A stretch of DNA of 64,000 bases from Patescibacteria group bacterium (GTDB lineage Bacteria > Patescibacteriota > Microgenomatia > UBA10105 > UBA927), in assembly GCA_035510735.1 (NCBI GenBank), contig DATKGN010000008.1, positions 12,466 to 76,465 on the forward strand, in the 5' to 3' direction. This document shows, piece by piece, positions 31,093-60,485 of the stretch. Numbering within the stretch: the first letter of the stretch is position 1; the number at the start of each line of letters is the position of its first letter. The translations under genes were made by a program, and so were the position numbers. Below the pieces are notes generated by a model. That model worked only from the letters and a program-made list of their open reading frames with translations, searched no databases and was not told where the DNA came from.

Positions 31093-31608
31093 TTACAGGG
31101 GTGTGTTACTGCTTGCAATACCATACATACACTCTGCCCCGCCGCCGCAATTGGTGTTCGCGTAGCCCGTGATTTTGACCCCTTTATCCGTATCCATTGT
31201 ATTTTCGATGGTCGAATAGATTTTATAATAGCTCCCATCCAGAGAATCATAATAATAGGCTTCGCCTGGCTGTGGATCCGTTGGCAGCGCGAGCATATAG
31301 ATAGTCTCAGGAGATGCCAAGAGATCACTCCATTTTTTCCCCCATGTACAGTCACTGATGCTTCCGGATCCTAAAATACACCCTTTAATCTGGCCTGCAT
31401 CACCGAGCGGATATTTTCCCTTATCGTTATAATATGTTTCCAACGCCTGGGCAACCTGTCCTAAATCGCTTTTACGCCGGCTGTCTCTGGATTTTTTCAC
31501 CGACGAAATGAAGCTTCCCACACCCGCAACGATCAGCATTCCAAGAAGAGCAATGACAATTAATAACTCTATTAACGTAAATCCGTTTCGTCGTGTATGT
31601 CTTTTCAT
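31093..31608 (-). CDS. prepilin-type (type IV pilin-like) protein
   Basis: GFTLIELLIVIALLGML motif; start set at MKRHTRRNGFTLIELL preceded by GGGAGG RBS. Confidence 0.75.
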   Translation of the reverse strand: MKRHTRRNGFTLIELLIVIALLGMLIVAGVGSFISSVKKSRDSRRKSDLGQVAQALETYYNDKGKYPLGDAGQIKGCILGSGSISDCTWGKKWSDLLASPETIYMLALPTDPQPGEAYYYDSLDGSYYKIYSTIENTMDTDKGVKITGYANTNCGGGAECMYGIASSNTPL

Positions 31609-31628
31609 TGTAACAAGTCCTCCCCGTG

Positions 31629-32309: not shown

Positions 32310-32376
32310 CGGGGTCAGGAATCTCATATATCAGGTATAATCAGTATGGCAAGACACCAAACAAAAAGCAACCAAT

Positions 32377-44645: not shown

Positions 44646-46271
44646 ATGTCAAAAGATAGACCTTTATCACTCTTGCGTCAACACGCATTCACGATACTCT
44701 TTATCATTTTTTCGCTGTTCATTATCCGCAATGATATCGTTTACTACCGAAGCGTTTCACTGCGCGCCACACCGGATTTCTTTCCCGCCCACACTGTTGG
44801 AAATGCGGATGATTATCATCAATATATCTTTCTCATAAAAACAGGCCGCGAAGGCAAGTTGCTTTACCACAATGCGTATTCCGAAGAGCCCATACCCGAT
44901 GTTCTTCTCCAACCTATCTATAATGTCGTCGGATTGTTATCCCGACCATTTCCGGTCTCTCTGTATACTGTTTATTTCATATTTCATGTCGTATCTCTTA
45001 TTATTCTTTTTGTCAGTATATATTTACTTATCTCCCGGGTATTCAACCCGATTATACCGAAGATATTTGCCACAATTCTGTATTTTACGGCAATCGGTTT
45101 TTGGAGCATCGTGTCTTTTGCTCCGTTCCAAATCAAGAGGTATGATCTCGCGGATTATAACTTTGATCTTTTTTCAAAATTTCATGTCATCGCCCCGCAT
45201 CATAACATTGCGATTGCTCTCGTCATCCTTGTATTCATAGTGCTCACTTCCACCAAACACCACGCAGGTATTGTTGCGGGTTTGTTGAGTCTCCTATTAG
45301 GTCTCATCCACCCCTATATCCAACTCATGATGTTCTTAATGCTTTTCGCAAATGCACTCATTCAAACAATTTTGGAACGAAAACTGTTAACGCGCGCATT
45401 TAGAGATTTTTTTATTATTATCGTTATCTCATCACCGCTCATCGTCTATTATCTTTATCTCACCAATGTCATACTTCATTTTACTGTCGCTACTGACGGT
45501 ATTCTCACGTTTCTACCGAGAACAATATCGTTTCTTTCGTACCTTCAGGCGCTTGGTCCGCTTTTTATCTTTGCATTACCATCGCTCGTTTTCTTTATAT
45601 ATTCAAAACCGTATTCAATCATACGATTTCTTTTACTTTGGGCTTTTCTGCCGATTCTTCTGTTCTTTTTCCCTGATTTCCATCTGCCGTTTGCTGTATG
45701 GCGGCTCTCACAGATCTATCAGCACATTCCGCTTGCTATACTCGGTGCATATTGGGTATATATATTAATTCGGAACAAACGATTTGCTCTCTCTTTAATG
45801 ATACTCGTTGGCGGCATAACGCTCTTATATGGATTTACTGCATATAACTATGTATTCCAAGCCAGCGCAGACACCCATGATGCCGGTGGCTATATATTCA
45901 CTTACTATGTGCCGACACCAGTCATACATGCATTTACATATCTCGACCGGGAAACGCCCAGAGACTCAGTCGTTCTCGCAAGCCAGATGGTGTCAAGTAT
46001 GATTCCGTCGTTCACTCACAATCGCGTCATTATCGGACACAACGGCAATAACAGGGATTATTATCAGAAATTAGCTGAGGCTAACATGTTTTTTACCGGC
46101 ACGATGAGCTATGATGATGCCCACGCCTATCTTCTGAAACGTCATGTCTCATATATAATCTTCGGACTTGATATGCCGGGATTTACGGCAATGTCTTACG
46201 CCAATATGGGTTTTTTGAAACTCGTCTACGGGAACCCTTATGATATTTCAGTGGTGAAGGTGCTTCGATAA
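44646..46271 (+). CDS. polytopic membrane protein (possible glycosyltransferase/polymerase; unassigned)
   Basis: ~12 TM segments, C-terminal soluble domain; no diagnostic motif. Confidence 0.4.
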   Translation: MSKDRPLSLLRQHAFTILFIIFSLFIIRNDIVYYRSVSLRATPDFFPAHTVGNADDYHQYIFLIKTGREGKLLYHNAYSEEPIPDVLLQPIYNVVGLLSRPFPVSLYTVYFIFHVVSLIILFVSIYLLISRVFNPIIPKIFATILYFTAIGFWSIVSFAPFQIKRYDLADYNFDLFSKFHVIAPHHNIAIALVILVFIVLTSTKHHAGIVAGLLSLLLGLIHPYIQLMMFLMLFANALIQTILERKLLTRAFRDFFIIIVISSPLIVYYLYLTNVILHFTVATDGILTFLPRTISFLSYLQALGPLFIFALPSLVFFIYSKPYSIIRFLLLWAFLPILLFFFPDFHLPFAVWRLSQIYQHIPLAILGAYWVYILIRNKRFALSLMILVGGITLLYGFTAYNYVFQASADTHDAGGYIFTYYVPTPVIHAFTYLDRETPRDSVVLASQMVSSMIPSFTHNRVIIGHNGNNRDYYQKLAEANMFFTGTMSYDDAHAYLLKRHVSYIIFGLDMPGFTAMSYANMGFLKLVYGNPYDISVVKVLR

Positions 46272-47558
46272 AAATGACTCTACGATTGTTTTTATATACG
46301 TAATCATTGGTGGGGTAATTCCGGGATAAACTCCAATCCAAAATGCGTCGTTCATGAGTTTATCGGAATTGGTAAGGTCTTCTACTTTCCGGATATCCGG
46401 GCGGTTGAGATAGGCCGGATGACGGGTTAAGTTTCCTGCAAAGATGCTTCGTGTGGCAATTTTGTGATTTTCAAGATATTTTACTAATTCTAATTTGGCG
46501 AAGGGCGCTCCGTCTTTTACCACCAACGGGAATCCGAACCAACTCGGCTTTGCACCAACGAGCGGTTCAGGAAGAATAAAATAGTCTTGATATTTTGTAA
46601 AAAACAAATGTAATGCGGCAAAGTTTTCTCGCCTCTTTTTAATAAACCCTTTGAGCTTTTTAAGCTGTGCAAGACCAAGTGACGCCTGCATATCGGTAAG
46701 CTTCAGATTATAGCCAATTTGGGAATAGGTATATTTATGATCATAACCGTAGGGCAATTCCCCAAGCTTCCACCCGAAACGCATGCCACAGGTATTATCT
46801 TTTCCCGTGTCACACCAACAGTCGCGGCCCCAGTCCCTAAACTGCCGGATGGCGCGGTGAATCATATGATTGTTGGTCACAACTGCTCCCCCCTCGCCCA
46901 TCGTAATCTGATGCGCGGGGTAAAAGGAGAATGTTGCAATATGCCCGAATGTTCCTGCCAATTTTCCTTTATACTCCCCGCCTAATGCATCGCAACAATC
47001 TTCGATAAACCAAAGTTTATGTTTCTCAACGAGCGCCATGATGTCATCAAGCGGCATCAGGTTGCCGAGTGTATGGGCCATCATGATAACCTTCGTCTTC
47101 GGAGTGATGGCCTTTTCCAAATCCTTTGGGTTAACGTTTTTCGTGACTAAATCGTTATCAAGAAGAACGGCGGTACACCGGTTTTGAAGCGTCGGGTTAA
47201 CCGTCGTTGGGAATCCCGTGCCCACGGATATTACTTCATCCCCCGGCATAAGCGCCCGGTCGCGGAATATTTTCGACGTAAGTGACGTAAGCGCGACCAA
47301 ATTAGCGGATGATCCGGAATTGACCAGGGAAACATATTTCACCCCGAGGAATTTCCCGAATTCGCGTTCAAATTCCAGTGCAAACCGCCCCTCGGTCCAC
47401 CACCCATCCAATACCGCCTCAACACCACTCAGTAATTCCTTTTCATCAAACACTTTACCGGAAACGGGAACGGGTGAAACCCCGGGGACAAATTTCTTCT
47501 TTTGGAAGTTTTTCTTAGAATACCGTACAATCTGGTCAACGAGAGCTTTTGAAAGCAT
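46248..47558 (-). CDS. rfbH: CDP-6-deoxy-D-xylo-4-hexulose-3-dehydrase (RfbH/DdhC, PLP/PMP DegT-family)
   Basis: N-terminal KKKFVPGVSPVPVSGKVFDEKELLSGVEAVLDGWWTEGRFALEFEREF closely parallels RfbH; 436 aa as in RfbH. Confidence 0.75.
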   Translation of the reverse strand: MLSKALVDQIVRYSKKNFQKKKFVPGVSPVPVSGKVFDEKELLSGVEAVLDGWWTEGRFALEFEREFGKFLGVKYVSLVNSGSSANLVALTSLTSKIFRDRALMPGDEVISVGTGFPTTVNPTLQNRCTAVLLDNDLVTKNVNPKDLEKAITPKTKVIMMAHTLGNLMPLDDIMALVEKHKLWFIEDCCDALGGEYKGKLAGTFGHIATFSFYPAHQITMGEGGAVVTNNHMIHRAIRQFRDWGRDCWCDTGKDNTCGMRFGWKLGELPYGYDHKYTYSQIGYNLKLTDMQASLGLAQLKKLKGFIKKRRENFAALHLFFTKYQDYFILPEPLVGAKPSWFGFPLVVKDGAPFAKLELVKYLENHKIATRSIFAGNLTRHPAYLNRPDIRKVEDLTNSDKLMNDAFWIGVYPGITPPMITYIKTIVESFLSKHLHH

Positions 47559-47610: not shown

Positions 47611-48444
47611 ATGCAAGATCATGATGGTGGCGAAGAATCTGTTAATGTTGCCGAATATATAACGCGGATACAAGAACCCTTACCCGATAAATTAGATATC
47701 GACAATGGCATACTGATCTTTTCACCACAGTCACCAATCATTATTCAAGATGGATCGATACAAAAATCAATTAACGCATATTCCGGATTATTTATCTCGG
47801 ATGAATCTGAACGATCCGAACTTTCGCAACCTCTCATAGGTAATACTGACTTCCATGTTTTGTTTAGCGGAACACATGGTGACACATTCACAATTTCACC
47901 TGCTACTGCAGTTCATCCGTTAACGCAAGTCGTCTGTCTTGACGTTGACCATGTTCAAAGAAGAAAATTTAGCCTTCCCCATGAACTGGGGCATGCGTAT
48001 TTAAATTGGAAACATATCGGCTTACTCCTTGCGCAATCGGCATTAACAGGTCAAAACAACAAAGGCATTGCTCATCTTCCGGAAATACAAAATTATGTGT
48101 CATTCATACGTTCTGTTTGCGAAAAAAATCACGTCACTCAAATACCTACAGACGAAAACGAATTGCTTCAGCTAAGGCGACGGTCCTCCCCATTTTTTGA
48201 AGCATTAGCTGTATTTGATGAACGATACGCCTGGGGGGTCGGTCTTGCATTATCATCTCTTTATCCGGGATTTTCAACAGATTGGCTGCAGCGTGACGGG
48301 CTTGAGCAGGCAACGAAAGGTTTAATTAACTATGGATTAAAATTTAATGAACAACTATTTGTTAATGGCTTTTCTAAAGAAGATTCCATCGGAAACATAG
48401 CCTTTTTCTTTAGAAATCAATTTAGTGAAAACGCCTCGGGTTAA
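47611..48444 (+). CDS. hypothetical protein with HELGH (HExxH) motif, possible ImmA/IrrE-like metallopeptidase
   Basis: FSLPHELGHAYLNWKH. Confidence 0.35.
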   Translation: MQDHDGGEESVNVAEYITRIQEPLPDKLDIDNGILIFSPQSPIIIQDGSIQKSINAYSGLFISDESERSELSQPLIGNTDFHVLFSGTHGDTFTISPATAVHPLTQVVCLDVDHVQRRKFSLPHELGHAYLNWKHIGLLLAQSALTGQNNKGIAHLPEIQNYVSFIRSVCEKNHVTQIPTDENELLQLRRRSSPFFEALAVFDERYAWGVGLALSSLYPGFSTDWLQRDGLEQATKGLINYGLKFNEQLFVNGFSKEDSIGNIAFFFRNQFSENASG

Positions 48445-49127
48445 TTACCCTGCGGATAATATTTCTGTAAAAATTTCTCCGTATCCTGATAACAAAGAAG
48501 AATCCGGCCCATTGCTTCATTATTAATCCCAACATCATCAAATCGTCTATAAACCCTCTCGATACCCCGGCGAATATCATTTGGAACCTGAGGTTCAACA
48601 ATGGTAAACCCCTGCCGTTTGGATACCCGGGCTAGCTTTTCAAAGGTAACGCCCATTATATATTTTGGGTGCAAATCTTGTTTCACTATATATTGTGCTA
48701 TTAAGTGCATGGAATCATTGATATATTTAAACGGGTTTTTACGCTGTTCATCATCAGTTATAGGCGGTAAGTGTAAATCAAGAATACGGTCTCCTTCGTT
48801 AATTTCTAAACCGCTTTTAGGATCTGAAAAATGTATTTTTGATGTGCTGTCTATGACAATAAATAATCCTAATTGCTTCCAGTGTTGATAAGAAGATATA
48901 TCATTTTTCCCTTTATCAATCTCATCAACTAGATCCTTAATATCTAATTTTTCACGGATCTTTACGGCTATTTCAAGGGCAAATGGATCTCGACTTAACT
49001 CTAAAATACGATCCACCTCTCCCCTCAACTCGTTTCTAAACCGTTTCTCAGGAGTTTCCGGTGGTCTGGAATATTTTTCGAAACTAAATCCGCCTTCACC
49101 GCTATTCATATGAGGGCATTCTAGCAC
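48441..49127 (-). CDS. hypothetical protein
   Basis: 228-aa ORF, no motifs. Confidence 0.4.
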   Translation of the reverse strand: MLECPHMNSGEGGFSFEKYSRPPETPEKRFRNELRGEVDRILELSRDPFALEIAVKIREKLDIKDLVDEIDKGKNDISSYQHWKQLGLFIVIDSTSKIHFSDPKSGLEINEGDRILDLHLPPITDDEQRKNPFKYINDSMHLIAQYIVKQDLHPKYIMGVTFEKLARVSKRQGFTIVEPQVPNDIRRGIERVYRRFDDVGINNEAMGRILLCYQDTEKFLQKYYPQGN

Positions 49128-49214
49128 AAAATGTGGATGAAATCAATATTATAGGCTATAATCTATACAATATAGGCTCCGTATTTATGAATCCAAATCA
49201 TCTTAACCCCACAA

Positions 49215-49895
49215 TCACACCTGTAACAACTTCTCATAATTTTGTACTTTATCTAATAAAAATATCCTTAATTTATTATCCGCCTCTAAATGTCCAATTT
49301 CCGATAATGTCATGTTTTTCATAAACGAGAGGAGATCGTGTGCAAATTTTTGTGCTAATAATTCACCCTCATCCTGCTCGTATAATTCCCTATTGCCAAT
49401 AAATCTTAACACCAGACCCATGGCCATCGATTTCATATATGAATCTTTATCAAAGACATACTGCCACGAATGAGGCAATTCGTTTGCAATAGTTTTCTCT
49501 ATGTATACTATATCTCGAGCAAATTGAAATTGATGCGTATCCTTATGTCCATCCGGTTGCCTGAATACACTCATGTTTCGAATGAGATCCGCGTTCAATA
49601 ATATAACGGGCTTCTCATTCCGTACAATTACCGAACCCTGCGCTGATTGCTTACCGTCAGCAAATTTTATATCTCTCATTTCAATCAATGGAACTTCCGG
49701 TAATTTCAGCACAAAGCTGCCGATCGTTGTTATCCTTTCAACACTATCCAATAAGGTATTTACGGAAGCCAAATCATGGATTTGTTCAAGAAGACCGGCA
49801 TTTTTTATTTGATGAAGCAAATGATCTTTCACAGGAGTATTTTTGGGGATTTCTCCGGTTGACGGGTCTTGAAAATCATATGAAAATTCCGTCAT
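49215..49895 (-). CDS. hypothetical protein
   Basis: 226-aa ORF, no motifs. Confidence 0.4.
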   Translation of the reverse strand: MTEFSYDFQDPSTGEIPKNTPVKDHLLHQIKNAGLLEQIHDLASVNTLLDSVERITTIGSFVLKLPEVPLIEMRDIKFADGKQSAQGSVIVRNEKPVILLNADLIRNMSVFRQPDGHKDTHQFQFARDIVYIEKTIANELPHSWQYVFDKDSYMKSMAMGLVLRFIGNRELYEQDEGELLAQKFAHDLLSFMKNMTLSEIGHLEADNKLRIFLLDKVQNYEKLLQV

Positions 49896-49919: not shown

Positions 49920-51149
49920 TCAGATTATTTGAACCAGCACCCTGCACACAAAATCAACATCTTTTTCCGTCATGTTGAGGGCGGAAGGCAGGTTGAAGCC
50001 GTCTTTTTCGACCCGTGATGCCACAGGATTGGGAAACCTCGCGGTATACATAGGAAACCTGCTCATCCGCGGAAACCCTTCCCGTGCGTGAATATTGTAC
50101 GTGCGAAGCCGGGTAATAAGATCATTTCTCGATATTTTTTTCGTTTGCAGGAGTACCGCCGGATACGCATAATTTGACCGCATGCCTTCTTTTTCTTTCA
50201 ATAACGTAAGTTCCGGCACGTCTTTCAGCCGGTCCCAATACCAGTTGAAAATTTTCCGCTTCATTGCGACCAACTCTTCGATGCGCTCAACCTGGGCAAG
50301 CGCGAGCGCCGCTGTGACATTGGACATCTGGTATTCGAACCCCAACGTGTCGCACCAAAAGTTCGCGAGCCGGTTGGTTCTTCCCATATTACTCATGAGT
50401 ACCGCCTCATCAAGCATTTTCTTATTATTCGTTAAAAACATACCACCTTCTCCCGATGCCGCAATTTTTGCGCCATGAAATGATATACATGAGACATCAC
50501 CGAAACTCCCTACTTTCTTCCCCTTATAGAGCGATCCTATTGAGGGAGCCGCATCTTCAATGAGTTTCAACTTATATTTTTTTACAATCTTCATAATCGC
50601 ATCCATATCGCAGGGCATGCCAAACGTATGGACAATCATAATGCCTTTCGTCTTTTTGGTAATGGCGTTTTCGATCGCTTTGGGATCAATACACCACGTA
50701 TCAGGGTCTATATCGACAAATACCGGAGTCGCGCCTGTGTAGGCGATCACATGAGCCGTCGCTGCCCAGCTAAAGTCAGTCACGATCACTTCATCACCTT
50801 TAGTAAATCCGCAGACCAGGCACGCCAGATGCATGCAGTGCGTCGCACAAAATCCTGCAAGCGCGTAGGTTGTTCCGATGTAAGAAGCTGTTGCCGCTTC
50901 GAGTTTTTTAATGTGTTTATCAAACGTTTCATAAAACCCCTGTTTAACACCCTCTATGACATAGCGTACTTCTTTGTCTGTAATCGACGGGCCGGCAAAA
51001 CTAATCTTTTTTTTACTCGGACTTAATAATCGTTTTCCAAAACGAGTATTATAGTCCGAGTTACCCCTCGTAGCTTTTAGCGAAGTGGGGTTACGATTCG
51101 GTCGAGATGCCTCCATAGCCTTGCGCGAAGGAGGGTTACGCTTTTTCAT
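49920..51149 (-). CDS. DegT/DnrJ/EryC1/StrS family sugar aminotransferase (PLP-dependent), with basic N-terminal extension
   Basis: ISFAGPSITDKEVRYVIEGVKQG start block, ...SFHGAKIAASGEGGM... Lys-PLP region. Confidence 0.75.
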   Translation of the reverse strand: MKKRNPPSRKAMEASRPNRNPTSLKATRGNSDYNTRFGKRLLSPSKKKISFAGPSITDKEVRYVIEGVKQGFYETFDKHIKKLEAATASYIGTTYALAGFCATHCMHLACLVCGFTKGDEVIVTDFSWAATAHVIAYTGATPVFVDIDPDTWCIDPKAIENAITKKTKGIMIVHTFGMPCDMDAIMKIVKKYKLKLIEDAAPSIGSLYKGKKVGSFGDVSCISFHGAKIAASGEGGMFLTNNKKMLDEAVLMSNMGRTNRLANFWCDTLGFEYQMSNVTAALALAQVERIEELVAMKRKIFNWYWDRLKDVPELTLLKEKEGMRSNYAYPAVLLQTKKISRNDLITRLRTYNIHAREGFPRMSRFPMYTARFPNPVASRVEKDGFNLPSALNMTEKDVDFVCRVLVQII

Positions 51150-51810
51150 ATATTCCTTTCCATTTCATAAATACATCATACCGTTGTATTGACCTTTTAT
51201 ACCCCATCGGCGCCGTAATCCATTCTCCCCCATCTCGTGTTGTTCGATGGATAAGTCGTATGCGCTTTGTCTCAACAAATCCTAATTTATTATATAAACG
51301 CAATGCCCGCTCATTATCCGATGTCGTCTGGAGCGTGTATCCGTTGAGCCCAAACGTACTCATTCCCCACTGCATCATCTGCCGGATTGCCGCCGTCACA
51401 AGCCCCGGATACCCCTTGCGCCCACGGACAATATTGTCAATCTCACATGTTTTCTTTTCAAAATCAAACCGGTATAACCCAACATGACCTATATATGTAT
51501 CATGAACACGTATCATAAACAAGAGCCGGTCCTGTGTATTTATAACGTTATTTTTTAACCACCCCTTTGTCCGTTTGCGGGTCACCGGAAATTGCGTTGG
51601 AAACCACGTTTCATGTTTTTTCCTCCAGCGCGAAAGAAGGGCAACGATGTGATCATCAGTGATTGAATCGCGGGTAAGGAGTATAAGATCATAGTTCGTC
51701 CGGCGGATTATTCCCCGAATCGATACGGAGCCAAACGATTTGTTTTTCAATCGTGCGATGATTGCGCGTATCTTTTGTCCTGGTGGCGAAGAATATAAAG
51801 CGTCCTTCAT
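51136..51810 (-). CDS. GNAT family N-acetyltransferase
   Basis: IGHVGLY ... RGRKGYPGLVTAAIRQMMQW ... YNKLGFVE acetyl-CoA binding pattern. Confidence 0.6.
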   Translation of the reverse strand: MKDALYSSPPGQKIRAIIARLKNKSFGSVSIRGIIRRTNYDLILLTRDSITDDHIVALLSRWRKKHETWFPTQFPVTRKRTKGWLKNNVINTQDRLLFMIRVHDTYIGHVGLYRFDFEKKTCEIDNIVRGRKGYPGLVTAAIRQMMQWGMSTFGLNGYTLQTTSDNERALRLYNKLGFVETKRIRLIHRTTRDGGEWITAPMGYKRSIQRYDVFMKWKGIYEKA

Positions 51811-53594
51811 TCTTTCATCGCGGTCATTTTTTCAAATTCTTTGCGATCCAAAAACGGAAAAAGGTCTTCGTACGGTTTTGAAACAAGTCTGCCGTCGGGC
51901 ATTTTATCCGATGCAACACGCGGAATGATGAGTTGCCATTCAGGGGAAAGGACATCACAGACGACCGGCCCCTTGTACGAAAGGACTTCTTTGATTTTAC
52001 GATCCAATTCGCCCACATTCTTAATGCGCACTGCTTTTATCCCATATGCTTTGGCAATCTTCATGCTGTCAGGACACCAAAGCCCGCTTTTGGGACTCTC
52101 CCCCAATAATCGTCCTTCCATATGCACGCGCTGTGTATGGCGGATCAACAAATACCCGTTATTGTTGATAACGAATAATTTTATCGGTAATTTGTTATGT
52201 TTCATCGTTGCAAGCTCCTGCAAATTCATCTGCAGACAGCCGTCACCCGTCACGATAATCGTGTTCCCTTTCGGACGGGCCATGCATGCGCCGATGCCTG
52301 CCGGCCAATATCCCATCGTCGATATCCCACCGGTTGTCAAAAACCGCTGTCCTTTTTTAATTTTCCACGCCTGACATACAACATGAAACGGCGAACTCGT
52401 ATCCACGACGACCGTATCTTTTGATGACGCAAAGCGGGATAACCGATCACTTAAGTAATACGAATTCACCGTTTTTTCTTTTTTATATTCGGGGAGGGAC
52501 ATCGGATAACGTTTATTCCACAGATTACACCGGGCAATCCACGAGGCGTAGGAATGCAATTTTGTATGTGGTAACGACGCAAGGAGAAGTTCGAAAAATT
52601 GTTTTGCATCACCGTAAATTTTAACTGTAGGCTCAAGACCGGGTTTTTCAAGTTCTTTCGTATCGATATCAACGACGACTTTCATCGCCCGTCTGCCCCA
52701 ATCTTTCGCATCATAACCGACAATTCCCGGATCAAGCCGTGCGCCAACCGCGATAATGAGATCAGCAAGCTGTACGGCAAAATTCGCGGGCCGGTCACCA
52801 TACAGTCCGGGACGTCCCACAAATTGTCTGTTGTCTGATTCGATAAGATCAATACCTAACCGCGTCGTGATGACGGGCATATGCGTTTTACGTAAAAATG
52901 TTTGAGCAAGCTCTCTTGCGCCCGCAATATGCACGCCGTGTCCCAAAAGAAGAAGCGGACGTTTAGCATTGGTGAGAAGCGTCATTACACGCGCAACATC
53001 TTCTTTTTGTATAACCGGTAATACACGTTCGAATTCCGACGGATCAAAATGAAACGACATTTTTTCGGGCACCGTCATCCGTTGCGTATCAAGCGGCACT
53101 TCTATCCATACCGGCCCCGGCCGTCCATGGGTCGCCAGATAATAGGCTTTTTCCATGTGATACTGAATTTTTGCCGGGTCATCTATTGAAATAAAATATT
53201 TCGTCACCGTTTGTACAATGGGTTTGAGGTAAATACCCTGAAGTCCATATTGACGGATACCGGTTTTTTCCATGTAGGAGACGTTACCGGTTCCTGATTG
53301 CCCGGAAATCACCATCATGGGGGCAGAATCAACATATGCGCCGACAACCCCTGTTAACGCATTGATACCTGCCGGTCCGGCTGTCACCATGGCAACGCCG
53401 ATTGATTTCCCGATACGACCATACGCTTCAGCCGCCATGGCAGCTGCCTGTTCGTGATGATGAAAGATTGGGTGAATGCGTTTGTTTTTATATACCGCGT
53501 CGTTGAGGAACATCGCCTGACCGCCGGTTATCATAAATACCGTATCAACACCTTTTTGAGCGATAAAATCAACGATGTATTCTGCAATATTCAT
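51807..53594 (-). CDS. thiamine-pyrophosphate-dependent enzyme, acetolactate-synthase/YerE/Xsc family
   Basis: N-terminal TPP-enzyme pyrimidine-binding domain (ITGGQAMFLNDAV...HEQAAAMAAEAYGR), central domain, C-terminal TPP-binding GDGxx...NN motif region (VTGDGCLQMNLQELATM...VINNNGY). Confidence 0.75.
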   Translation of the reverse strand: MNIAEYIVDFIAQKGVDTVFMITGGQAMFLNDAVYKNKRIHPIFHHHEQAAAMAAEAYGRIGKSIGVAMVTAGPAGINALTGVVGAYVDSAPMMVISGQSGTGNVSYMEKTGIRQYGLQGIYLKPIVQTVTKYFISIDDPAKIQYHMEKAYYLATHGRPGPVWIEVPLDTQRMTVPEKMSFHFDPSEFERVLPVIQKEDVARVMTLLTNAKRPLLLLGHGVHIAGARELAQTFLRKTHMPVITTRLGIDLIESDNRQFVGRPGLYGDRPANFAVQLADLIIAVGARLDPGIVGYDAKDWGRRAMKVVVDIDTKELEKPGLEPTVKIYGDAKQFFELLLASLPHTKLHSYASWIARCNLWNKRYPMSLPEYKKEKTVNSYYLSDRLSRFASSKDTVVVDTSSPFHVVCQAWKIKKGQRFLTTGGISTMGYWPAGIGACMARPKGNTIIVTGDGCLQMNLQELATMKHNKLPIKLFVINNNGYLLIRHTQRVHMEGRLLGESPKSGLWCPDSMKIAKAYGIKAVRIKNVGELDRKIKEVLSYKGPVVCDVLSPEWQLIIPRVASDKMPDGRLVSKPYEDLFPFLDRKEFEKMTAMKE

Positions 53595-53611
53595 GTATGA
53601 ATTACACACCT

Positions 53612-53703
53612 TGTCATTGCGAGTCGAGTCTCACGAGACGCGGCAATCTCAATATAAATTATAGTGAGATCGCTTCGCCATAAGAACGGTCTCGCGATGA
53701 CAG
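53612..53703. repeat. palindromic MITE/REP-like element (copy 2 of 3)
   Basis: TGTCATTGCGAG...GGCAATC...GCTTCG...CTCGCGATGACAG. Confidence 0.65.
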
Positions 53704-53715
53704 TGCATATACCAT

Positions 53716-54762
53716 TTATGTTAACGATTCTAATTGAAAGTCTTCCGGTTTGCCTTCTTTTTTCTGTTTTAAATACAACGCAACTTCAACAATGATATCT
53801 TCCTGACCCGCTACCACTTTTCTTCCCCCCAGCTCTACGAGTATATCACGAACGTCAACTCCGAAGCGCTCTGCTGCGCGTTTCGCGAGCGGTGCAAAAC
53901 CGGAAAATACACCCGAAAGACCGCTTGTGAGTGTCACGGAATTAATTTCCGGAGTCGTATTATTGGTTTTTTCGCGGATTAGCTCAGCATTATCCATAAG
54001 CTGATAAAGATCCAATCCCGTCTGCCTACCGGTTTTTTGAAGAACTGCCACGATAACTTCAAGCGGACAGTTGCCTGCACCCGCGCCCAAACCACGGCTC
54101 GTACCATCGATGATAGTCGCCCCCGCTTCAACAGCACGAAGAGCGTTGCCGATCGCAAGCCCGAGATTATTGTGTGAATGGAAACCGACGGCAACAGACA
54201 GACCGCCCACGAGTGCACTGACTTTTTCCGTCACCTCCGACGGCACGTAAGCGCCGGCCGAATCCATAAGGATGATGCCTTGTGCTCCGTATCCTTCCAT
54301 CAGCTTCGCCTGTTCTAATAGCTCGTTCGCACCTATCATGTGAGACATCATGAGAACCCCATACGTCGCGAGGTCATGCGAGATCCCGTAGCCAATATGC
54401 TGCCTTGTAACATTTGCCTCAGTACAGTGACACGCGACAATGAGGGCTTCTATTCCCGCGTCAATTGCCGGAGCAATATCATTTTTGATCGTTCCGAACC
54501 CCGGAATCAAAAAACCTGCAAGCTTCGTATGCTTTAATTCTTTTTTGGCAATTGTAAGCATCTGGACATCAGAAAGCCGCGATTCACCTAAATGCAGCGA
54601 TGAAGCGCCCAACCCGTTACCATGCCCGACGACCAGAAGTTTCATTCCGGCGGCTTCTGCCCCTCTTGCGTATGCGTGAACCGTCTCTTCATTAAATTGA
54701 TGATGCATCGCATGGGATCCGTCACGAAGAGTTGAATCAATAATGGTTATTTGCGTATTCAT
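53716..54762 (-). CDS. 4-hydroxy-2-oxovalerate aldolase-like (DmpG/MhpE/BphI family)
   Basis: IIDSTLRDGSHAMHH, HGNGLG, CTEANVTRQHI, LMMSHMI, GFHSHNNLGLAIGNALRAVEAGA, GLGAGAGNCPLEV — near-colinear with DmpG. Confidence 0.8.
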   Translation of the reverse strand: MNTQITIIDSTLRDGSHAMHHQFNEETVHAYARGAEAAGMKLLVVGHGNGLGASSLHLGESRLSDVQMLTIAKKELKHTKLAGFLIPGFGTIKNDIAPAIDAGIEALIVACHCTEANVTRQHIGYGISHDLATYGVLMMSHMIGANELLEQAKLMEGYGAQGIILMDSAGAYVPSEVTEKVSALVGGLSVAVGFHSHNNLGLAIGNALRAVEAGATIIDGTSRGLGAGAGNCPLEVIVAVLQKTGRQTGLDLYQLMDNAELIREKTNNTTPEINSVTLTSGLSGVFSGFAPLAKRAAERFGVDVRDILVELGGRKVVAGQEDIIVEVALYLKQKKEGKPEDFQLESLT

Positions 54763-54774
54763 AGCTGGTATTCA

Positions 54775-54866
54775 TGTCATTGCGAGACCGTTCTTACGGC
54801 GTGGCAATCCATCTTATTATAGAGATTGCTTCGTCTTCGCCAATTGGCGTATCCTCGCAATGACAA
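54775..54866. repeat. palindromic MITE/REP-like element (copy 3 of 3)
   Basis: TGTCATTGCGAGACCGTTCTTACGGCG ... CTCGCAATGACAA; 5' arm is the reverse complement of the 3' arm of copy 2. Confidence 0.65.
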
Positions 54867-54875
54867 CTGATACGC

Positions 54876-55763
54876 TCACTCTTTCCTCTTTACTCTCTGC
54901 TTTGCATATTCTTCCGCAACCGCGATAGCCGCACAGTTTATAATATCCAAATTCCCGGCATATACCGGCAAAAAATCGCCGAGTCCCACGACTTCCGTCA
55001 TTATCATAACGCAGTCAGAGGTGTTCACCGGTTCGACGATAACGCGAAAGCCCGGAACGTATTTTTGAAGCCTTTTAGCTGTATCACGGATTTCTTTCAC
55101 AATAGCATCCATTTTAGGCTTGCCAATCTTTGCGTATATTGTATTATGCATAAGAATTGGAGGGTCAGCAGGATTGAGAATGATGATCGTTTTGGCTCTC
55201 GGAACTCCGGCAATAGCCATAATTGCTTCGCTTGTTGTTTGTGTATACTCATCAATATTATCACGGGTCCCGATGCCTGCCGATTTGGACGAAATACTCG
55301 AGACGACCTCAATATAGGGAGTTTCGGGGTGTACGGACATGATGGCCGCAATAAGCGGAATATTCGCCTGGCCCCCGCACGAGATCATATTGACGTTGTG
55401 AGACCTGATGCTCTTTTTTAAATTAATAAGCGGCACGCACAATACTCCGATTTTTGAAGGCGTCATGTCGATGGTAAATTTATTTAGTCTCCGAAGGATC
55501 GGCGCATGAATCCGATGACTTACTGCATTTGTCGCGTCAAAGACTATATCACAAATATGAGGATTACTGACAATTGCATTGATGGAATCTGATGAGGTGG
55601 CCACCCCCATCCGCTTGGCATTCGCTATCCCGGGCGATGCAGCATTTTGTCCAGTAAAAAGTGTGCACATAAGATAAGGAGAGCGTTCTACTTTCATTAG
55701 TAAATCGCTTCCGATATTTCCCGTCCCGATAATCGCAACATGAAGTTTTTTTTGCTTTTTCAT
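54876..55763 (-). CDS. acetaldehyde dehydrogenase (acetylating), DmpF/MhpF family
   Basis: VAIIGTGNIGSDLLMKV, VNMISCGGQANIPLIAAI, SSISSKSAGIGTRDNIDEYTQTTSEAI, IILNPADPPILM — colinear with DmpF. Confidence 0.8.
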   Translation of the reverse strand: MKKQKKLHVAIIGTGNIGSDLLMKVERSPYLMCTLFTGQNAASPGIANAKRMGVATSSDSINAIVSNPHICDIVFDATNAVSHRIHAPILRRLNKFTIDMTPSKIGVLCVPLINLKKSIRSHNVNMISCGGQANIPLIAAIMSVHPETPYIEVVSSISSKSAGIGTRDNIDEYTQTTSEAIMAIAGVPRAKTIIILNPADPPILMHNTIYAKIGKPKMDAIVKEIRDTAKRLQKYVPGFRVIVEPVNTSDCVMIMTEVVGLGDFLPVYAGNLDIINCAAIAVAEEYAKQRVKRKE

Positions 55764-55794: not shown

Positions 55795-56760
55795 TTACCT
55801 TATTTTCTTTATGTTCACGGTTGTTCTCACAATATAGCGCGGCCGCCGTTTAACTTCCAAAAATATTTTCGCCAAATATTCAGCAATAACACTCAACGAT
55901 AATAGCTGCACACCCCCTAAAAATAAAATGAGTATAACAACGGTGGGTATCCCCCTGGGGGAATTATGAAACAGGATAATAGTAACAAGATCAAAAACCA
56001 TAAGAAGAAAAGTAAAAATCATAACAAAAAATGCGATAGTTGATATCCACTCCAGTGGTTTGAACGAAAAATTAACAAGTATTGTTTTTGCCCACCAGAA
56101 TCCCGAAAGGACGCTTTCATTTGTTTGACCGTGAGAACGCGCGTCGCGCACATACGGAACACCGATTTGTTTGAACCCTACGTATGCACGAAGACATCTG
56201 AGATAATAATCATATTCATCAATCGCCAATAATTCATCTACGACCCGCCGATCAAGAAGCGAAAAATCACCGGCATCAAGTGGAATACTAATATATGCCA
56301 ATTTGTTGAGGACATAATAAAACCCTTTATACAGCATGTTCCATATGATTCCGTAGCCTTTACGGGAAGTCCGTACGCCATACACCACCGAATACCCCTG
56401 TTTCCACCGCTCAACAAATTTTGATAAGAGTTCCGGGGGATCCTGAATATCTCCATGAAGAAGAAACGCCATATCACCCGTTGAATATTCCAGTCCCGCA
56501 AGGAAGCTTGGCTGCGGCGAGCCAAAATTGCGGCTCATAACAATGAGCTTGACGCGTCGATCCTTCTTTGTGAGACGAAGGTAAATTTTTTCTGATCTGT
56601 CCGTTGACGCATTGTCTACATAGATCAATTCAAAGTCGTAGCGTGGAATTTTTTTAAAAACGGCAACAATCCTGCGATACATCTCTTCAATATTTTCTTC
56701 CTCGTTATAACACGTAACGATGATGGATATACGTTTCTTTTTCATGATCCTTAATGTCAT
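55795..56760 (-). CDS. family 2 glycosyltransferase (polyprenol-phosphate glycosyltransferase, ArnC/GtrB-like) with C-terminal TM helices
   Basis: ISIIVTCYNEEENI ... YVDNASTD ... two C-terminal TM helices. Confidence 0.7.
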   Translation of the reverse strand: MTLRIMKKKRISIIVTCYNEEENIEEMYRRIVAVFKKIPRYDFELIYVDNASTDRSEKIYLRLTKKDRRVKLIVMSRNFGSPQPSFLAGLEYSTGDMAFLLHGDIQDPPELLSKFVERWKQGYSVVYGVRTSRKGYGIIWNMLYKGFYYVLNKLAYISIPLDAGDFSLLDRRVVDELLAIDEYDYYLRCLRAYVGFKQIGVPYVRDARSHGQTNESVLSGFWWAKTILVNFSFKPLEWISTIAFFVMIFTFLLMVFDLVTIILFHNSPRGIPTVVILILFLGGVQLLSLSVIAEYLAKIFLEVKRRPRYIVRTTVNIKKIR

Positions 56761-56781: not shown

Positions 56782-57771
56782 CTATTCTTTATGTTTTATG
56801 GATTCCCGATTAGGTCGGAATGACAAAAACATACTGCTTTTTTTATACCATTTATATGTCTCCTTTAATCCTTTTTCGAGTGAATACGCTGGTTTCCATC
56901 CAAGCCCAGCGATTTTACTCCAGTTCAAATGCTGATATGGTATCTCATTTTTCTGATTATTATCAATCTGGTGCGGAACGGATATACGAAGTATCTTCTG
57001 CGCCCTCTTTATAAGATCAAGGACAGAAATATTTGTATCACTCGCAACATTAAACACCTCTCCCTTAATCTCATCTACATGATCTTCTAAAAATACATAT
57101 GCCGAAACGACATCGCCGACATATACATAATCCCTCATAAATGTGCCGTCGCTTCTCAGATGAAGTGTTTCGTGAGTTAGCGCGGCATTCATAATCCCGG
57201 GTATAATTCGCGACATATTAAGATCCCCGCCACCATAAATATTACCAAACCGAACGGTAACGACGGGCGCTCCATACGTTTTCACATAGGCTTTCGTCAC
57301 CATGTCTCCGGCGGCTTTACTTGCTTCATAGGGATGATCCCCCAGTAAGGGACTATCTTCCGTATACGTTTCGCTGCTTTTCCCGTATGCTTTATCGGAT
57401 GAAGTAATGATAATCCTGCGTACGGTGCCGCTATTCAACGCTGCATCGAGTATATGCGTTGTCCCTAAGACATTAGTCGTAATTGTCTCCACAGGATTGT
57501 AGTAAGCCGTATCAACAATCGGTTGAGCAGCGAGGTGAAAGATATCTTCTATTTCGTATTTGGTAACAATATCGGCTATTCTTCTTCGATCTGTAACGTC
57601 TCCATTCGCGAGAATTACTTTTTTTTCTAGTCCCCGGGTAACAAAATACGACTGCGGGTCAAGACTCCTGTACGGCACAACGACACGCGCTCCCCTTTTG
57701 ACGAGTTCTTCAACTAAATGACTTCCGACAAACCCCGTCCCGCCGGTGACTAAAATTCTACGTCCGTTCAT
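56782..57771 (-). CDS. rfbG: CDP-glucose 4,6-dehydratase (RfbG/DdhB-like extended SDR)
   Basis: ILVTGGTGFVGSHL, FHLAAQPIV (AAQP), TSSDKAYG, HPYEASKAAGDM, FGNIYGGGD — matches CDP-glucose 4,6-dehydratase rather than dTDP-type. Confidence 0.7.
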   Translation of the reverse strand: MNGRRILVTGGTGFVGSHLVEELVKRGARVVVPYRSLDPQSYFVTRGLEKKVILANGDVTDRRRIADIVTKYEIEDIFHLAAQPIVDTAYYNPVETITTNVLGTTHILDAALNSGTVRRIIITSSDKAYGKSSETYTEDSPLLGDHPYEASKAAGDMVTKAYVKTYGAPVVTVRFGNIYGGGDLNMSRIIPGIMNAALTHETLHLRSDGTFMRDYVYVGDVVSAYVFLEDHVDEIKGEVFNVASDTNISVLDLIKRAQKILRISVPHQIDNNQKNEIPYQHLNWSKIAGLGWKPAYSLEKGLKETYKWYKKSSMFLSFRPNRESIKHKE

Positions 57772-57975
57772 AATAGAGTCTCCCGATTGGTATATAAACA
57801 TGCACAACCCTTCTGTTTTCGTGTGGGATAAAAGAGTTTCCGATTATTAAATGAGCACGTGCAAACCCGAGCCAATTGCCTCGAATTATCAACCAAAGGG
57901 ATACATTTGAGGAGAAAATATACCACAAAGAAAACTCCGGCAAGTGCGAATTAAATAATCGGGAAACTCCCCGTG

Positions 57976-58758
57976 TTAGTCCTTCCATACTTTCCACTGT
58001 GGGCCGGTTTTCCAAAAGGTGTTGAGATTCGTAACGTCTGCATATGTATCCATCGCATGCCAAAATCCATTATGGACGTAAAGCGATAACTCATGATTTT
58101 TCACTAAGCGGTGTAATGCGGCATGATCAAATTCTCCGGGTCGAATGTAGTCAAAAAATTTCTTTTTGAAAATCATATACCCGCCGTTCACCCATTCCCG
58201 GAGGGACGGCTTCTCCACAAACTGTGTAACTCCGTTCTTTTCGTCAATGCGGACCTGTCCGAACCGGGACCGCGGGTGAACTCCGGTGATAGTTCCAACT
58301 AAGTTATGTTTACGGTGAAAAGCCACAAGTTTTTTAATATCAACATCTCCCAAACCATCACCATACGTCACCATAAAATCCTCATCTTCTTTCGGAATAT
58401 AATCGCGGACGCGGAGTATCCGTTCTCCCGTTAATGTTTCCTGACCCGTATCAACGAATGTAATGGTAAAATCATCTATCCCCTCTCCAGCTGACGCGCG
58501 GTGTATATGTGTCCTGCCGCTTTTCGTGTGAAGCGTAAAGTCGTGGAGGAAATATTTTTGATTCAGAAAATAATCCTTGATGTAATCTCCTTTATACCCA
58601 AGCGCGATAATAAATTCGTTAAAACCGAAGTGACTGTATATTTTCATGATATGCCAGAGAATCGGTTTATTGCCGATGAGGACCATGGGCTTTGGTTTAA
58701 ATTCCGTTTCTTCTTTTAACCGGTATCCGATTCCACCGCAGAGTATCACTGTTTTCAT
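57976..58758 (-). CDS. rfbF: glucose-1-phosphate cytidylyltransferase (RfbF/DdhA)
   Basis: MKTVILCGGIGYRLKEETEFKPKPMVLIGNKPILWHIMKIYSHFGFNEFIIALGYKG nearly colinear with RfbF N-terminus. Confidence 0.85.
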   Translation of the reverse strand: MKTVILCGGIGYRLKEETEFKPKPMVLIGNKPILWHIMKIYSHFGFNEFIIALGYKGDYIKDYFLNQKYFLHDFTLHTKSGRTHIHRASAGEGIDDFTITFVDTGQETLTGERILRVRDYIPKEDEDFMVTYGDGLGDVDIKKLVAFHRKHNLVGTITGVHPRSRFGQVRIDEKNGVTQFVEKPSLREWVNGGYMIFKKKFFDYIRPGEFDHAALHRLVKNHELSLYVHNGFWHAMDTYADVTNLNTFWKTGPQWKVWKD

Positions 58759-58799: not shown

Positions 58800-60485
58800 C
58801 TAACTATTATTTCTTTGTATCAAATTATGCTTTCGTAAATAGGTAACAATTTTTTGTACACTCATCATCCGCGATTGATGTGCCGTATTGATTGTCATCT
58901 CGGGATGTTTTGGTTTTTCATACGGATCATCAACACCGGTAACTCCCTTAATCTCACCCATCTCCTGGCGTTTATACAATCCTTTCACATCCCGTTTCCG
59001 ACAAACTGATAAGGGTGTGGCCACATACACTTCAACATATGTCCCATACGTTTTGATAAGCTGGCGATTAACTAATCTTGGTTCTTCATACGGAGCAACA
59101 ACAGCGCAAATGGCAATACCTCCGTGTTTTGTTATTTCAGAAGCAACAAATCCGATCCGTTTAATATTTGTGTCTCTGTCTTCTTTGGAAAATCCTAATC
59201 CTTTTGAAAGATTCCGTCTTACAACATCACCATCAAGGATGGTTACTTTTTTATCCTGGATTTCGATGAGTTGACTATAAAGCATTTGTGCTATCGTTGA
59301 TTTTCCTGCACTGGGCAATCCGGTAAAAAATACCGTCAGACCTCTTTTTGCATCTCGCACAGCCCCCGCCCTAAGTTCCCGAACTACCTCGGGAAATGAT
59401 ATCCACTCAGGTACTTGTGACTTCGAGCGGATAAGTTTCCTGAGTTTAGTTCCCGATATTTTTTTCACCTGCACGTTTTTGGAAACGTCCTGAATCTGCA
59501 TATATATTTTTTTATCCGTCCGGTACACCATTTCTTTAAACGGAATTATTATCATATCAAGTTCCGGTGCAAAATGACCGACTAACTCTTCCGCGTCGTA
59601 ATGACCGTAAAAAGGTCGCCCTGATTTGTCTTCTCCAGGTCCTGCATGATCCCGTCCGACGATAAAATGGGTGCATCCGTAGTTCTTCCGAATTATCGCG
59701 TGCCAGAGCGCTTCCTTCGGTCCCGCCATCCGCATCGCAAGAGGCAATAAACTCAACGTTGCGAACTGTTGCATATGACGCGTATAAACCGCAATATATG
59801 AACGGACGCGGGTCACGTAATCAATATCGCCGTCTTTTGTGACACCCACCGACGGATGAAAGAGTATATGGGCGTGATACTCATGGGCTGCCTGTTGCAT
59901 CATCGCAAAATGGACTTTATGGATCGGGTTTCTGGTTTGAAAACCGATAACTGATTCCCATGTATGTTTACGAAAATATGACCGCAGCTCCTGCGGGGTA
60001 TGCCGGTACTGTGCAAAATCGAACCGGTCTACGCGTGATATTCCTTTCAAAGTTCCGCCTAAATAATAGTCACCGGTTTCTTTGAGAAGATACTGTACAC
60101 CATAATGATCAGTATTCGTTGTACCGTAAACCAACTTTGCTTCCTGCTTTTTATCGGGGTGATATATGGAATTGATAGTAAATTTTGCAACCGGTTTACC
60201 GTACTGGTCACATAGAACAACGCTCATCCCACCCCGGTACGGACTAATATCGGGAACATCCAGCACCACAGGGATCGGCCAAAGTGTCCCATTCTTTAAC
60301 CGCATATTCTTGATAACGCTCTCGTATTCTTCTTCTTCGAGAAAACCGGTAAGTGGTAAAAAGGAGCTATCGAGAATTAATTCAAGGTCGCATAATTGCC
60401 GTGCATTAAGGTACACACGCGGAAGAGAAAATATTTCGCGTACGAGTTCCTTCTGTTCATTCCCATTCGTAAATAAATTTTTCAC
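58800..60485 (-). CDS. bifunctional sulfate adenylyltransferase / adenylylsulfate kinase (PAPS synthesis)
   Basis: ATP-sulfurylase GFQTRNPIHKVH and GRDHAGPG motifs; C-terminal APS-kinase P-loop FFTGLPSAGKST and DGD. Confidence 0.8.
   Translation of the reverse strand: MKNLFTNGNEQKELVREIFSLPRVYLNARQLCDLELILDSSFLPLTGFLEEEEYESVIKNMRLKNGTLWPIPVVLDVPDISPYRGGMSVVLCDQYGKPVAKFTINSIYHPDKKQEAKLVYGTTNTDHYGVQYLLKETGDYYLGGTLKGISRVDRFDFAQYRHTPQELRSYFRKHTWESVIGFQTRNPIHKVHFAMMQQAAHEYHAHILFHPSVGVTKDGDIDYVTRVRSYIAVYTRHMQQFATLSLLPLAMRMAGPKEALWHAIIRKNYGCTHFIVGRDHAGPGEDKSGRPFYGHYDAEELVGHFAPELDMIIIPFKEMVYRTDKKIYMQIQDVSKNVQVKKISGTKLRKLIRSKSQVPEWISFPEVVRELRAGAVRDAKRGLTVFFTGLPSAGKSTIAQMLYSQLIEIQDKKVTILDGDVVRRNLSKGLGFSKEDRDTNIKRIGFVASEITKHGGIAICAVVAPYEEPRLVNRQLIKTYGTYVEVYVATPLSVCRKRDVKGLYKRQEMGEIKGVTGVDDPYEKPKHPEMTINTAHQSRMMSVQKIVTYLRKHNLIQRNNS

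Follow-up and report, generated by a model that had tools for sequence, protein, structure and literature searches.

We analysed a 64,000-nucleotide stretch of DNA from a Patescibacteria group bacterium (contig DATKGN010000008.1; hereafter the window, meaning this whole stretch), in which three adjacent and co-directional genes on the minus strand probably cooperate in building a branched deoxysugar. In the order of transcription, the trio encodes an acylating acetaldehyde dehydrogenase resembling DmpF, BphJ, and ErwJ (54876–55763; 295 aa), a class II pyruvate aldolase with a DmpG communication domain, resembling DmpG, BphI, and ErwI (53716–54762; 348 aa), and a thiamine diphosphate (ThDP)-dependent carboligase of the YerE-like, ErwE-type kind (51807–53609; 600 aa when read from a GTG codon). 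The true start of the ThDP gene is probably the ATG at 53594, because the corresponding Met6 is shared by all members of the family alignment and a 100%-identical database protein, from an entry named ‘Patescibacteria group bacterium’, has 595 aa. The trio lies in a glycan array of 13 co-directional genes, which extends over 61498–48441 and has intergenic gaps of −14 to 168 nt. This array begins with two small membrane proteins, a 3′-phosphoadenosine-5′-phosphosulfate (PAPS) synthase, an RfbF-like protein, a 4,6-dehydratase, and an ArnC/GtrB-like family 2 glycosyltransferase (GT2); after the trio, it ends with a GNAT protein, a DegT protein, and two proteins without a family match. The GNAT start overlaps the ThDP stop by 4 nt, and DegT overlaps GNAT by 14 nt. 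A first-pass annotation of the window had reported the three open reading frames (ORFs) at these positions and in this order, which we confirmed, and had placed them between DegT/GNAT genes and the rfbF, rfbG, and rfbH genes. The DegT/GNAT flank on one side was as described, whereas the GT2 gene (55795–56760) separates the trio from the rfbG- and rfbF-like genes, and rfbH (46248–47558) lies on the other side.

The ThDP enzyme carries all three TPP_enzyme domains of Pfam (N, M, and C). In NCBIfam, it reached 357 bits against a cut-off of 538 for the biosynthetic acetolactate synthase (ALS) model TIGR00118 and 331 bits against 738 for another ALS model, and it also stayed below the cut-offs of the remaining ALS, AlsS, and glyoxylate carboligase models. 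The best PDB match was JanthE (8rph; 394 bits, full length), with lower scores for plant and yeast acetohydroxyacid synthases (AHAS; approximately 237 bits) and PpYerE (5ahk; 211 bits). By BLASTP, the window enzyme and JanthE were 35.6% identical over 595 residues, including the C-terminal tail. No ilvN, ilvC, or Xsc-related gene was detected among the approximately 50 window ORFs scanned, and homologs of the enzyme sit in loci for cytidine diphosphate (CDP)-deoxysugars. An ALS identity was rejected, since all ALS cut-offs were missed, JanthE scored far better, and ilvN and ilvC were not found in the window. An Xsc identity, which the first-pass annotation had offered as an alternative, was likewise dropped: no Xsc model was among the 25 best NCBIfam matches and no Xsc chain among the 60 best PDB matches, and the structural and contextual links all lead to sugar-branching enzymes. 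Judged from these matches, the enzyme belongs to the YerE-like sugar-branching subclass and not to AHAS.

The genomic context of the ThDP enzyme was compared across genomes in a one-genome-per-species scan, of which the best 80 loci were used; synteny tables and clustering were made by BLASTP, and counts were limited to loci keeping the flank. The loci span Patescibacteria, Acidobacteriota, Elusimicrobia, Omnitrophota, Firmicutes, Fibrobacteres, and Altiarchaeia. Where the ThDP enzyme was at least 54% identical to that of the window, DmpF and DmpG genes were found immediately upstream in every locus with an upstream flank (42/42). One clade at 44–48% identity had the order ThDP-DmpF-DmpG in 22 of 22 loci, whereas its sister clade at the same identity, mostly from Lachnospiraceae, had DmpFG in none of 18. 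The trio was syntenic in all 64 related loci with an intact flank, in two ThDP clades and beside CDP-sugar genes, a recurrence far beyond chance. Such co-variation of DmpFG with the ThDP clade is as expected if the aldolase pair sets the donor. Three homolog neighbourhoods, from an Acidoferrales metagenome-assembled genome (MAG) and two groundwater/sediment contigs, had in common a nucleotidyltransferase (NTP-transferase), a 4,6-dehydratase, DmpF, DmpG, the ThDP enzyme, a short-chain dehydrogenase/reductase (SDR), a GT2, and an RfbH-like DegT protein, with or without PMT_2. An ErwF-like SDR follows the ThDP gene in loci L001, L003, L005, and others. Two tandem YerE-like ThDP genes were observed in the Patescibacteria loci L012, L014, L016, and L041, the second being approximately 40% identical to the window enzyme, which points to a pair of distinct branch donors or acceptors within a locus.

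Both partner enzymes scored above the cut-offs of their families. The dehydrogenase reached 360 bits with TIGR03215 (acetaldehyde dehydrogenase, acetylating; cut-off 282), matched Pfam AcetDehyd-dimer (3.5e-47), had 7z3s as its best PDB match (293 bits), and keeps the catalytic Cys in an SCGGQA motif. The aldolase reached 381 bits with TIGR03217 (4-hydroxy-2-oxovalerate aldolase; cut-off 286) and matched Pfam HMGL-like (1.3e-38), DmpG_comm (2.7e-25), and PDB 1nvm (264 bits). We aligned 63 aldolases of the recurring cassette with catabolic DmpG (1nvm) and 4lrs, using DmpG numbering. The catalytic Arg17, Asp18, His21, His200, and His202 were invariant, including in the window aldolase. Tyr291 was replaced by Phe in all 63 cassette aldolases, and Leu88 by Phe, Tyr, or His in 62 of them; the window enzyme has Phe at both 88 and 291. 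In BphI, Y290F abolishes or relaxes (4S) stereo-control, and L87W or L87N combined with Y290F yields enzymes restricted to the (4R) substrate (PMC3962088). The cassette aldolases resemble this engineered BphI and are presumably (4R)-selective, the prediction for the window enzyme being that Phe291 and Phe88 mimic the (4R)-specific L87W/Y290F variant. A catabolic meta-cleavage role was rejected, given that the scanned ORFs yielded no hydratase, dioxygenase, or hydrolase gene and that the Leu88 and Tyr291 of catabolic DmpG/BphI are replaced.

Candidate genes for the supply of an acceptor sugar lie on both sides of the trio. The RfbH/E1 protein (CDP-4-keto-6-deoxyglucose 3-dehydrase; 46248–47558, minus strand), a DegT protein of 436 aa, scored 633 bits with NCBIfam NF011936 (cut-off 423) and 507 bits with PDB 3bcx (Yersinia E1), and it retains His220 and the [2Fe-2S] ligands Cys193, Cys251, Cys253, and Cys261. 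By sequence, it is a bona fide RfbH/E1, predicted to make the 3,6-dideoxy-4-keto acceptor. Two further genes on the minus strand encode an RfbG-like nucleoside diphosphate (NDP)-hexose 4,6-dehydratase (56782–57807; 341 aa; Pfam Epimerase and GDP_Man_Dehyd) and an RfbF-like protein similar to glucose-1-phosphate cytidylyltransferase (57976–58758; 260 aa); both are syntenic with the cassette in related loci. The only candidate ketoreductase in the locus is an RmlD-like SDR (43577–44557, minus strand; 326 aa; Pfam RmlD_sub_bind 1.8e-39), which shares approximately 30% identity with the ErwF-like reductases of L001, L003, and L005 over approximately 60 N-terminal residues and does not qualify as an ErwF ortholog.

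A comparable set of genes has been described for erwiniose in Pectobacterium atrosepticum SCRI1043, where ErwE (ThDP enzyme), ErwF (reductase), ErwI (BphI-like aldolase), and ErwJ (BphJ-like dehydrogenase) are encoded adjacent to the CDP-4-keto-3,6-dideoxyglucose genes (Steitz et al. 2022, PMC9306805). ErwJ makes acetaldehyde, ErwI condenses acetaldehyde and pyruvate into (R)-4-hydroxy-2-oxopentanoate, and ErwE couples 4-hydroxy-2-oxopentanoate, with (R) preferred, to a ketone mimic of CDP-4-keto-3,6-dideoxyglucose and rejects pyruvate (PMC9306805). The proposed order of ErwJ, ErwI, ErwE, and ErwF leads to erwiniose, which has a C4 branch, and caryophyllose and gastriose follow the same logic (PMC9306805). 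By this analogy, we propose, with a probability of roughly three in four, that the trio is an erwiniose-type module that builds a C4 branch in a CDP-deoxysugar pathway. The proposal starts from the enzyme identities, the conserved linkage, the aldolase stereo-signature, and the presence of RfbH, and it relies on analogy with ErwE, ErwI, and ErwJ for the direction in which the aldolase works and for the nature of the C4 donor and the acceptor. The (4R) signature of the aldolase also fits the preference of ErwE for the (R) donor.

In the proposed pathway, the DmpF-like enzyme would convert acetyl-CoA and NADH to acetaldehyde, and the DmpG-like aldolase, whose channelling communication domain is kept, would join it with pyruvate to form (4R)-4-hydroxy-2-oxopentanoate. 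The RfbF-like and RfbG-like proteins and RfbH would turn glucose-1-phosphate into the CDP-4-keto-3,6-dideoxyhexose acceptor. The ThDP enzyme would then decarboxylate the 2-oxo acid and add the C4 ‘active aldehyde’ to the C-4 carbonyl of this acceptor, giving CDP-3,6-dideoxy-4-C-(3-hydroxybutanoyl)hexose. In finishing, GNAT and DegT would make either a C-1′ acetamido branch or a separate 4-acetamido CDP-sugar, after which the GT2 would load the sugar onto polyprenyl phosphate and a GT-C glycosyltransferase would transfer it outside the membrane. We have less confidence in these last steps, which would differ from those in Pectobacterium.

Several points weigh against this reading. The best NCBIfam match of the dehydratase, CDP-glucose 4,6-dehydratase, scored 197 bits, clearly below the cut-off of 278, and the RfbF-like protein reached 281 bits with TIGR02623, just below the cut-off of 300 (the next family scored 84 bits). 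A crude motif search for an E3 reductase (RfbI/AscD; plant-type 2Fe-2S site, RxY[ST], and GxGxxP-type site) gave no match in any ORF of the window or of 86 related loci, by which absence is not proven. The window has no ErwF ortholog, so that the end product is not erwiniose itself. Co-transcription of the array was deduced from gene spacing alone, and promoter and terminator consensus scans of the window gave results at chance level. Direct biochemistry is confined to the homolog ErwE, and the likeness to ErwE (WP_011093010) follows its published description rather than a sequence alignment; Pectobacterium was not among the best 80 loci of the scan. Finally, JanthE also takes pyruvate, and similarity to it leaves the donor unfixed.

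Much of the first-pass annotation nevertheless holds. It had called the ThDP enzyme YerE-like, had connected the aldolase/dehydrogenase pair with the branching step instead of aromatic catabolism, and had suggested a branched 3,6-dideoxyhexose; these claims agree, respectively, with the ALS and JanthE scores, with the conserved linkage and the lack of catabolic genes in the window, and with the presence of RfbH. It had also named firm clustering with genuine ALS and nearby ilvN/ilvC as signs to the contrary; the enzyme does not group with such ALS, and neither gene was found in the window. What needs revision is the role of the pair as a mere source of pyruvate and acetyl units, given that on the ErwE precedent it would make the 4-hydroxy-2-oxopentanoate donor, and with it the yersiniose-like product.

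In that yersiniose-type scheme, the ThDP enzyme would move a C2 unit from pyruvate, and DmpF and DmpG would balance the pools of pyruvate, acetaldehyde, and acetyl-CoA, for instance by cleaving 4-hydroxy-2-oxovalerate. YerE itself attaches a pyruvate-derived C2 unit to C-4 of CDP-4-keto-3,6-dideoxy-D-glucose, that is, with the same acceptor (PMC9306805). Moreover, JanthE of Janthinobacterium sp. HH01, the closest solved relative of the window enzyme, couples 2-oxo acids, including 4-hydroxy-2-oxovalerate and pyruvate, to ketones. We nonetheless consider the scheme very unlikely. Pyruvate is rejected by ErwE, which alone among characterized enzymes has an aldolase/dehydrogenase pair next to it, and a dedicated supply of pyruvate would be needless for a central metabolite. 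DmpFG tracks the ThDP clades (64/64 versus 0/18 loci), a conserved stereo-switch signature in the aldolase would be pointless for cleavage or supply, and PpYerE scored much lower than JanthE (211 versus 394 bits). The branch is therefore probably C4 and not the C2 of yersiniose: following the ErwE/ErwI/ErwJ precedent, in which the pair runs synthetically to the donor, an erwiniose-like product is expected.

Downstream of the trio, on the minus strand, lie genes for a GNAT N-acetyltransferase (51136–51810; 224 aa; Pfam Acetyltransf_3 2.2e-15 and a weak PseH-like NCBIfam match) and a DegT-family sugar aminotransferase (49920–51149; 409 aa; Pfam DegT_DnrJ_EryC1 3.6e-100). The best PDB matches of the latter were 7b0m and perosamine synthase, and its pyridoxal phosphate lysine (‘GAK’) is kept. 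GNAT orthologs were found directly 3′ of the ThDP gene in L007, L008, L009, L019, L028, L030, L035, and L098, and the arrangement of GNAT with DegT recurs in these eight loci and in L013. In a metagenome scan seeded with the DegT clade, its members occurred nearly always with GNAT, RfbH, and a ThDP enzyme, the last drawn from many YerE-like clades that were 31–92% identical to the window enzyme and came with or without DmpFG. Of the 18 metagenome loci of the DegT clade that were flanked by at least 6 kb in both directions, a ThDP enzyme (YerE-like or transketolase-like) was present in 17, GNAT in 18, and RfbH in 16. DegT-clade loci without a YerE-like gene carried split transketolase-like ThDP genes (L142, 5072–6929; L137, 5226–7429; L099, 14612–16368) or, in L105 (7344–8924), a radical-SAM/SPASM protein with a C-methyltransferase-like tail. 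The DegT/GNAT tailoring module appears to be linked to various kinds of C-branching enzyme. L142 additionally carries a transaldolase/FSA gene, and L008 (10260–11150) was grouped with the transketolase-like/radical-SAM loci.

Most loci with this module contain, between GNAT and DegT, a class I/II amino-acid aminotransferase of the methionine/aspartate/kynurenine type (L019, 12328–13620; L028, 12462–13643; L035, 10415–11602; and many of L104–L165), the gene of which is absent from the window. An identity as α-oxoamine synthase was rejected, as the protein matches ordinary amino-acid aminotransferases instead; more likely, it makes 2-oxo acid donors for the ThDP enzyme from amino acids. A strict replacement of ErwF by GNAT/DegT was also discarded, because L035/L106, L098, L111, L125, and L153 carry both.

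Two uses of the DegT/GNAT module can be considered within the C4-branch pathway. Its dependence on a C-branching enzyme, together with the fact that the acyl branch holds the only carbonyl left after attack at C-4, suggests action on the branch. Tentatively, and at somewhat less than even odds, DegT would transaminate the side-chain C-1′ ketone and GNAT would then acetylate it to give an acetamido branch. A full product of this type, 3,6-dideoxy-4-C-(1-acetamido-3-hydroxybutyl)hexose carried on polyprenyl phosphate and attached by a GT-C to the Patescibacteria cell surface, is at best equally tentative. Alternatively, the two enzymes could possibly make a second, parallel 4-acetamido CDP-sugar from a ring 4-keto substrate, given that several loci also hold an ErwF-like reductase and that DegT is similar to aminotransferases acting at C-4 of the ring. 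For amino-branched 3,6-dideoxyhexoses, a search of the literature returned nothing relevant, and no described natural example was found. If action on the branch proves true, this DegT clade would be a dedicated ‘branch aminotransferase’ that travels with YerE-like, transketolase-like, or radical-SAM C-branching enzymes.

The same neighbours could also be read as users of an acyl group. The trio would then make a 3-hydroxybutanoyl group, and GNAT would place it on a DegT-made amino sugar, yielding an N-(3-hydroxybutanoyl)amino-deoxyhexose with no C-branch. Bacterial glycans commonly contain such N-(3-hydroxybutanoyl) amino sugars, the 3′ end of the ThDP gene is overlapped by the GNAT/DegT pair, and DegT resembles C-4 aminotransferases such as perosamine synthase. 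The chemistry is at odds with this idea, since YerE-like enzymes are non-oxidative carboligases and decarboxylation would provide an aldehyde, not an acyl-CoA for GNAT. In addition, ThDP enzymes of the same clade (54–67% identical) occur with an ErwF-like reductase and without GNAT/DegT in approximately 20 loci, and GNAT/DegT also pairs with ThDP enzymes lacking DmpFG and with transketolase-like enzymes; we regard an acyl-donor role as very unlikely. That the genes are unrelated, with the ThDP enzyme being an ALS for branched-chain amino acids or an Xsc and DmpFG a meta-cleavage remnant, is hardly credible: the top NCBIfam names are indeed ALS models and a PAPS synthase lies nearby, but the ALS cut-offs were missed widely, the scanned ORFs include no ilvN, ilvC, hydratase, dioxygenase, or hydrolase, no Xsc is among the matches listed, the trio is conserved in glycan loci across phyla, and the aldolase lacks the Tyr291 and Leu88 of catabolic DmpG/BphI.

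Candidate genes for delivery of the sugar were also recovered. The GT2 of the array (55795–56760, minus strand; Pfam Glycos_transf_2 1.5e-28) is of the polyprenyl-phosphate glycosyltransferase type (ArnC/GtrB/PgfS-like); its NCBIfam scores were 233 bits for PgfS and 120 bits for ArnC, both below the cut-offs, and it has two C-terminal transmembrane (TM) helices starting at residues 235 and 268. A GT2 of this type is present in most related loci, and the window has more GT2 genes beyond the 13-gene array. A PMT_2/ArnT-like GT-C membrane glycosyltransferase is encoded at 61599–63233 on the plus strand (Pfam PMT_2 2.7e-9; eight predicted TM-like segments). PMT_2 genes were also found in L003 and L005, and GT-C genes in general (PMT_2, PTPS_related, YfhO, and DUF2142) accompany the cassette in the window and elsewhere. 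From the GT2 with its C-terminal TM helices and PgfS/ArnC as best matches, and from the accompanying GT-C genes, we infer that the sugar is probably delivered via polyprenyl phosphate and then transferred by a GT-C to an extracytoplasmic acceptor. Three proteins with 9–11 predicted TM segments (39915–41678 and 41985–43610, minus strand; 44646–46271, plus strand) are interspersed with the RmlD-like reductase and RfbH. None of the three matched a Pfam or NCBIfam family, two of them have orthologs in L009 and L088, and they may be GT-C-like transferases, polymerases, or flippases.

Other features of the window were noted around the array. The PAPS synthase, a bifunctional ATP sulfurylase/adenosine-5′-phosphosulfate (APS) kinase (58800–60485, minus strand; Pfam ATP-sulfurylase 8e-76 and APS_kinase 1.7e-56), has an ortholog in L007; given its position inside the glycan array, a sulfated glycan is possible, and no sulfotransferase domain was detected among the scanned window ORFs. 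Two ORFs of 228 and 226 aa close the sugar operon (48441–49895, minus strand) in a low-GC stretch (0.38); they matched no family, and no orthologs were detected in L008 or L009. In a divergent ORF of 277 aa (47611–48444, plus strand), an HELGH metalloprotease-like motif was seen together with a weak match to Peptidase_M78. Neither the Rfam nor the tRNA scan gave a match in the window.

Farther away, a 2972-aa ORF (21504–30422, plus strand) contains strong repeats of the collagen triple-helix type (Pfam, 224 bits) and, at its N-terminus, a match to a phage-integrase SAM-like domain; the GC content in this region reaches 0.55 at 22–24 kb, compared with approximately 0.45 elsewhere in the window. 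Bacterial collagen-like surface proteins are often glycosylated, and it may be speculated on this ground that the 2972-aa protein is a target of the neighbouring glycan locus. Three pilin-like genes with an N-terminal methylation motif (30551–32327, minus strand) adjoin the glycan region, and a compact arginine set of ornithine carbamoyltransferase, argininosuccinate synthase, and a lyase is located at 9247–13268 (minus strand).

The core of the trio pathway has been known from Pectobacterium since 2022 and will not greatly surprise a specialist. The interest, which we judge to be moderate, lies in its wide spread, in the (4R) signature that the aldolases carry naturally, and in the GNAT/DegT module for tailoring. 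The combination of an aldolase-built 2-oxo acid with YerE-like grafting would reach beyond a single plant pathogen into many uncultured lineages, among them genome-reduced Patescibacteria and Altiarchaeia, and in view of this wide phylogenetic spread, branched higher sugars may commonly serve as surface decorations. Class II pyruvate aldolases with the invariant Tyr291Phe replacement and an aromatic residue at 88 would form a natural family, presumably (4R)-selective and of interest for biocatalysis because this stereochemistry had to be engineered into BphI. Lastly, the link of the DegT/GNAT clade to C-branching enzymes predicts undescribed amino-functionalised branched sugars, along with candidate enzymes that make them.

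Among known systems, the catabolic DmpFG, BphIJ, MhpEF, and HsaFG complexes share with the window pair the fold, the catalytic residues, the communication domain, and the F-then-G order. In contrast to catabolic DmpFG and BphIJ, the window pair is proposed to act in the synthetic direction, is predicted to be (4R)- and not (4S)-selective, and has no catabolic partner genes. The principle of grafting an aldolase-built, hydroxylated 2-oxo acid onto a 4-keto sugar is also represented by MMAR_2332 with the MMAR_2331 aldolase in Mycobacterium marinum and by MyGE with MygI in M. gastri. However, the caryophyllose and gastriose systems employ aldolases of the HpcH/citrate-lyase type and C6 to C7 donors, with no DmpF-like partner. 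The yersiniose A system of Yersinia pseudotuberculosis (YerE/YerF) resembles the window in having a carboligase of the ThDP/flavin fold that places an acyl group on C-4 and in the RfbF/RfbG/RfbH supply of the acceptor; it differs in the pyruvate donor, the C2 branch, and the lack of an aldolase/dehydrogenase partner. JanthE is donor-promiscuous, and its ThDP motif reads CDG as opposed to GDG in the window enzyme. A 2025 review (PMC12247030) puts the number of YerE-like clusters identified in silico at more than 200.

The closest parallel is the erwiniose pathway, in which a YerE-like ThDP enzyme, a BphI-like aldolase, and a BphJ-like dehydrogenase are likewise encoded side by side, next to genes for CDP-4-keto-3,6-dideoxyglucose. 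The gene orders differ, being E-F-J-I for erwiniose and dehydrogenase, aldolase, and ThDP enzyme in the window, and so does the finishing: the erwiniose pathway includes ErwF, whereas GNAT and DegT follow the ThDP gene in the window, where no E3 gene was found, unlike in the Pectobacterium locus. Erwiniose is incorporated into O-antigen by a Leloir transferase, whereas the window sugar would likely pass through a polyprenyl-phosphate GT2 and a GT-C. The hosts are equally distinct, a plant pathogen in the case of Pectobacterium and, for the window, an uncultured Patescibacteria MAG.

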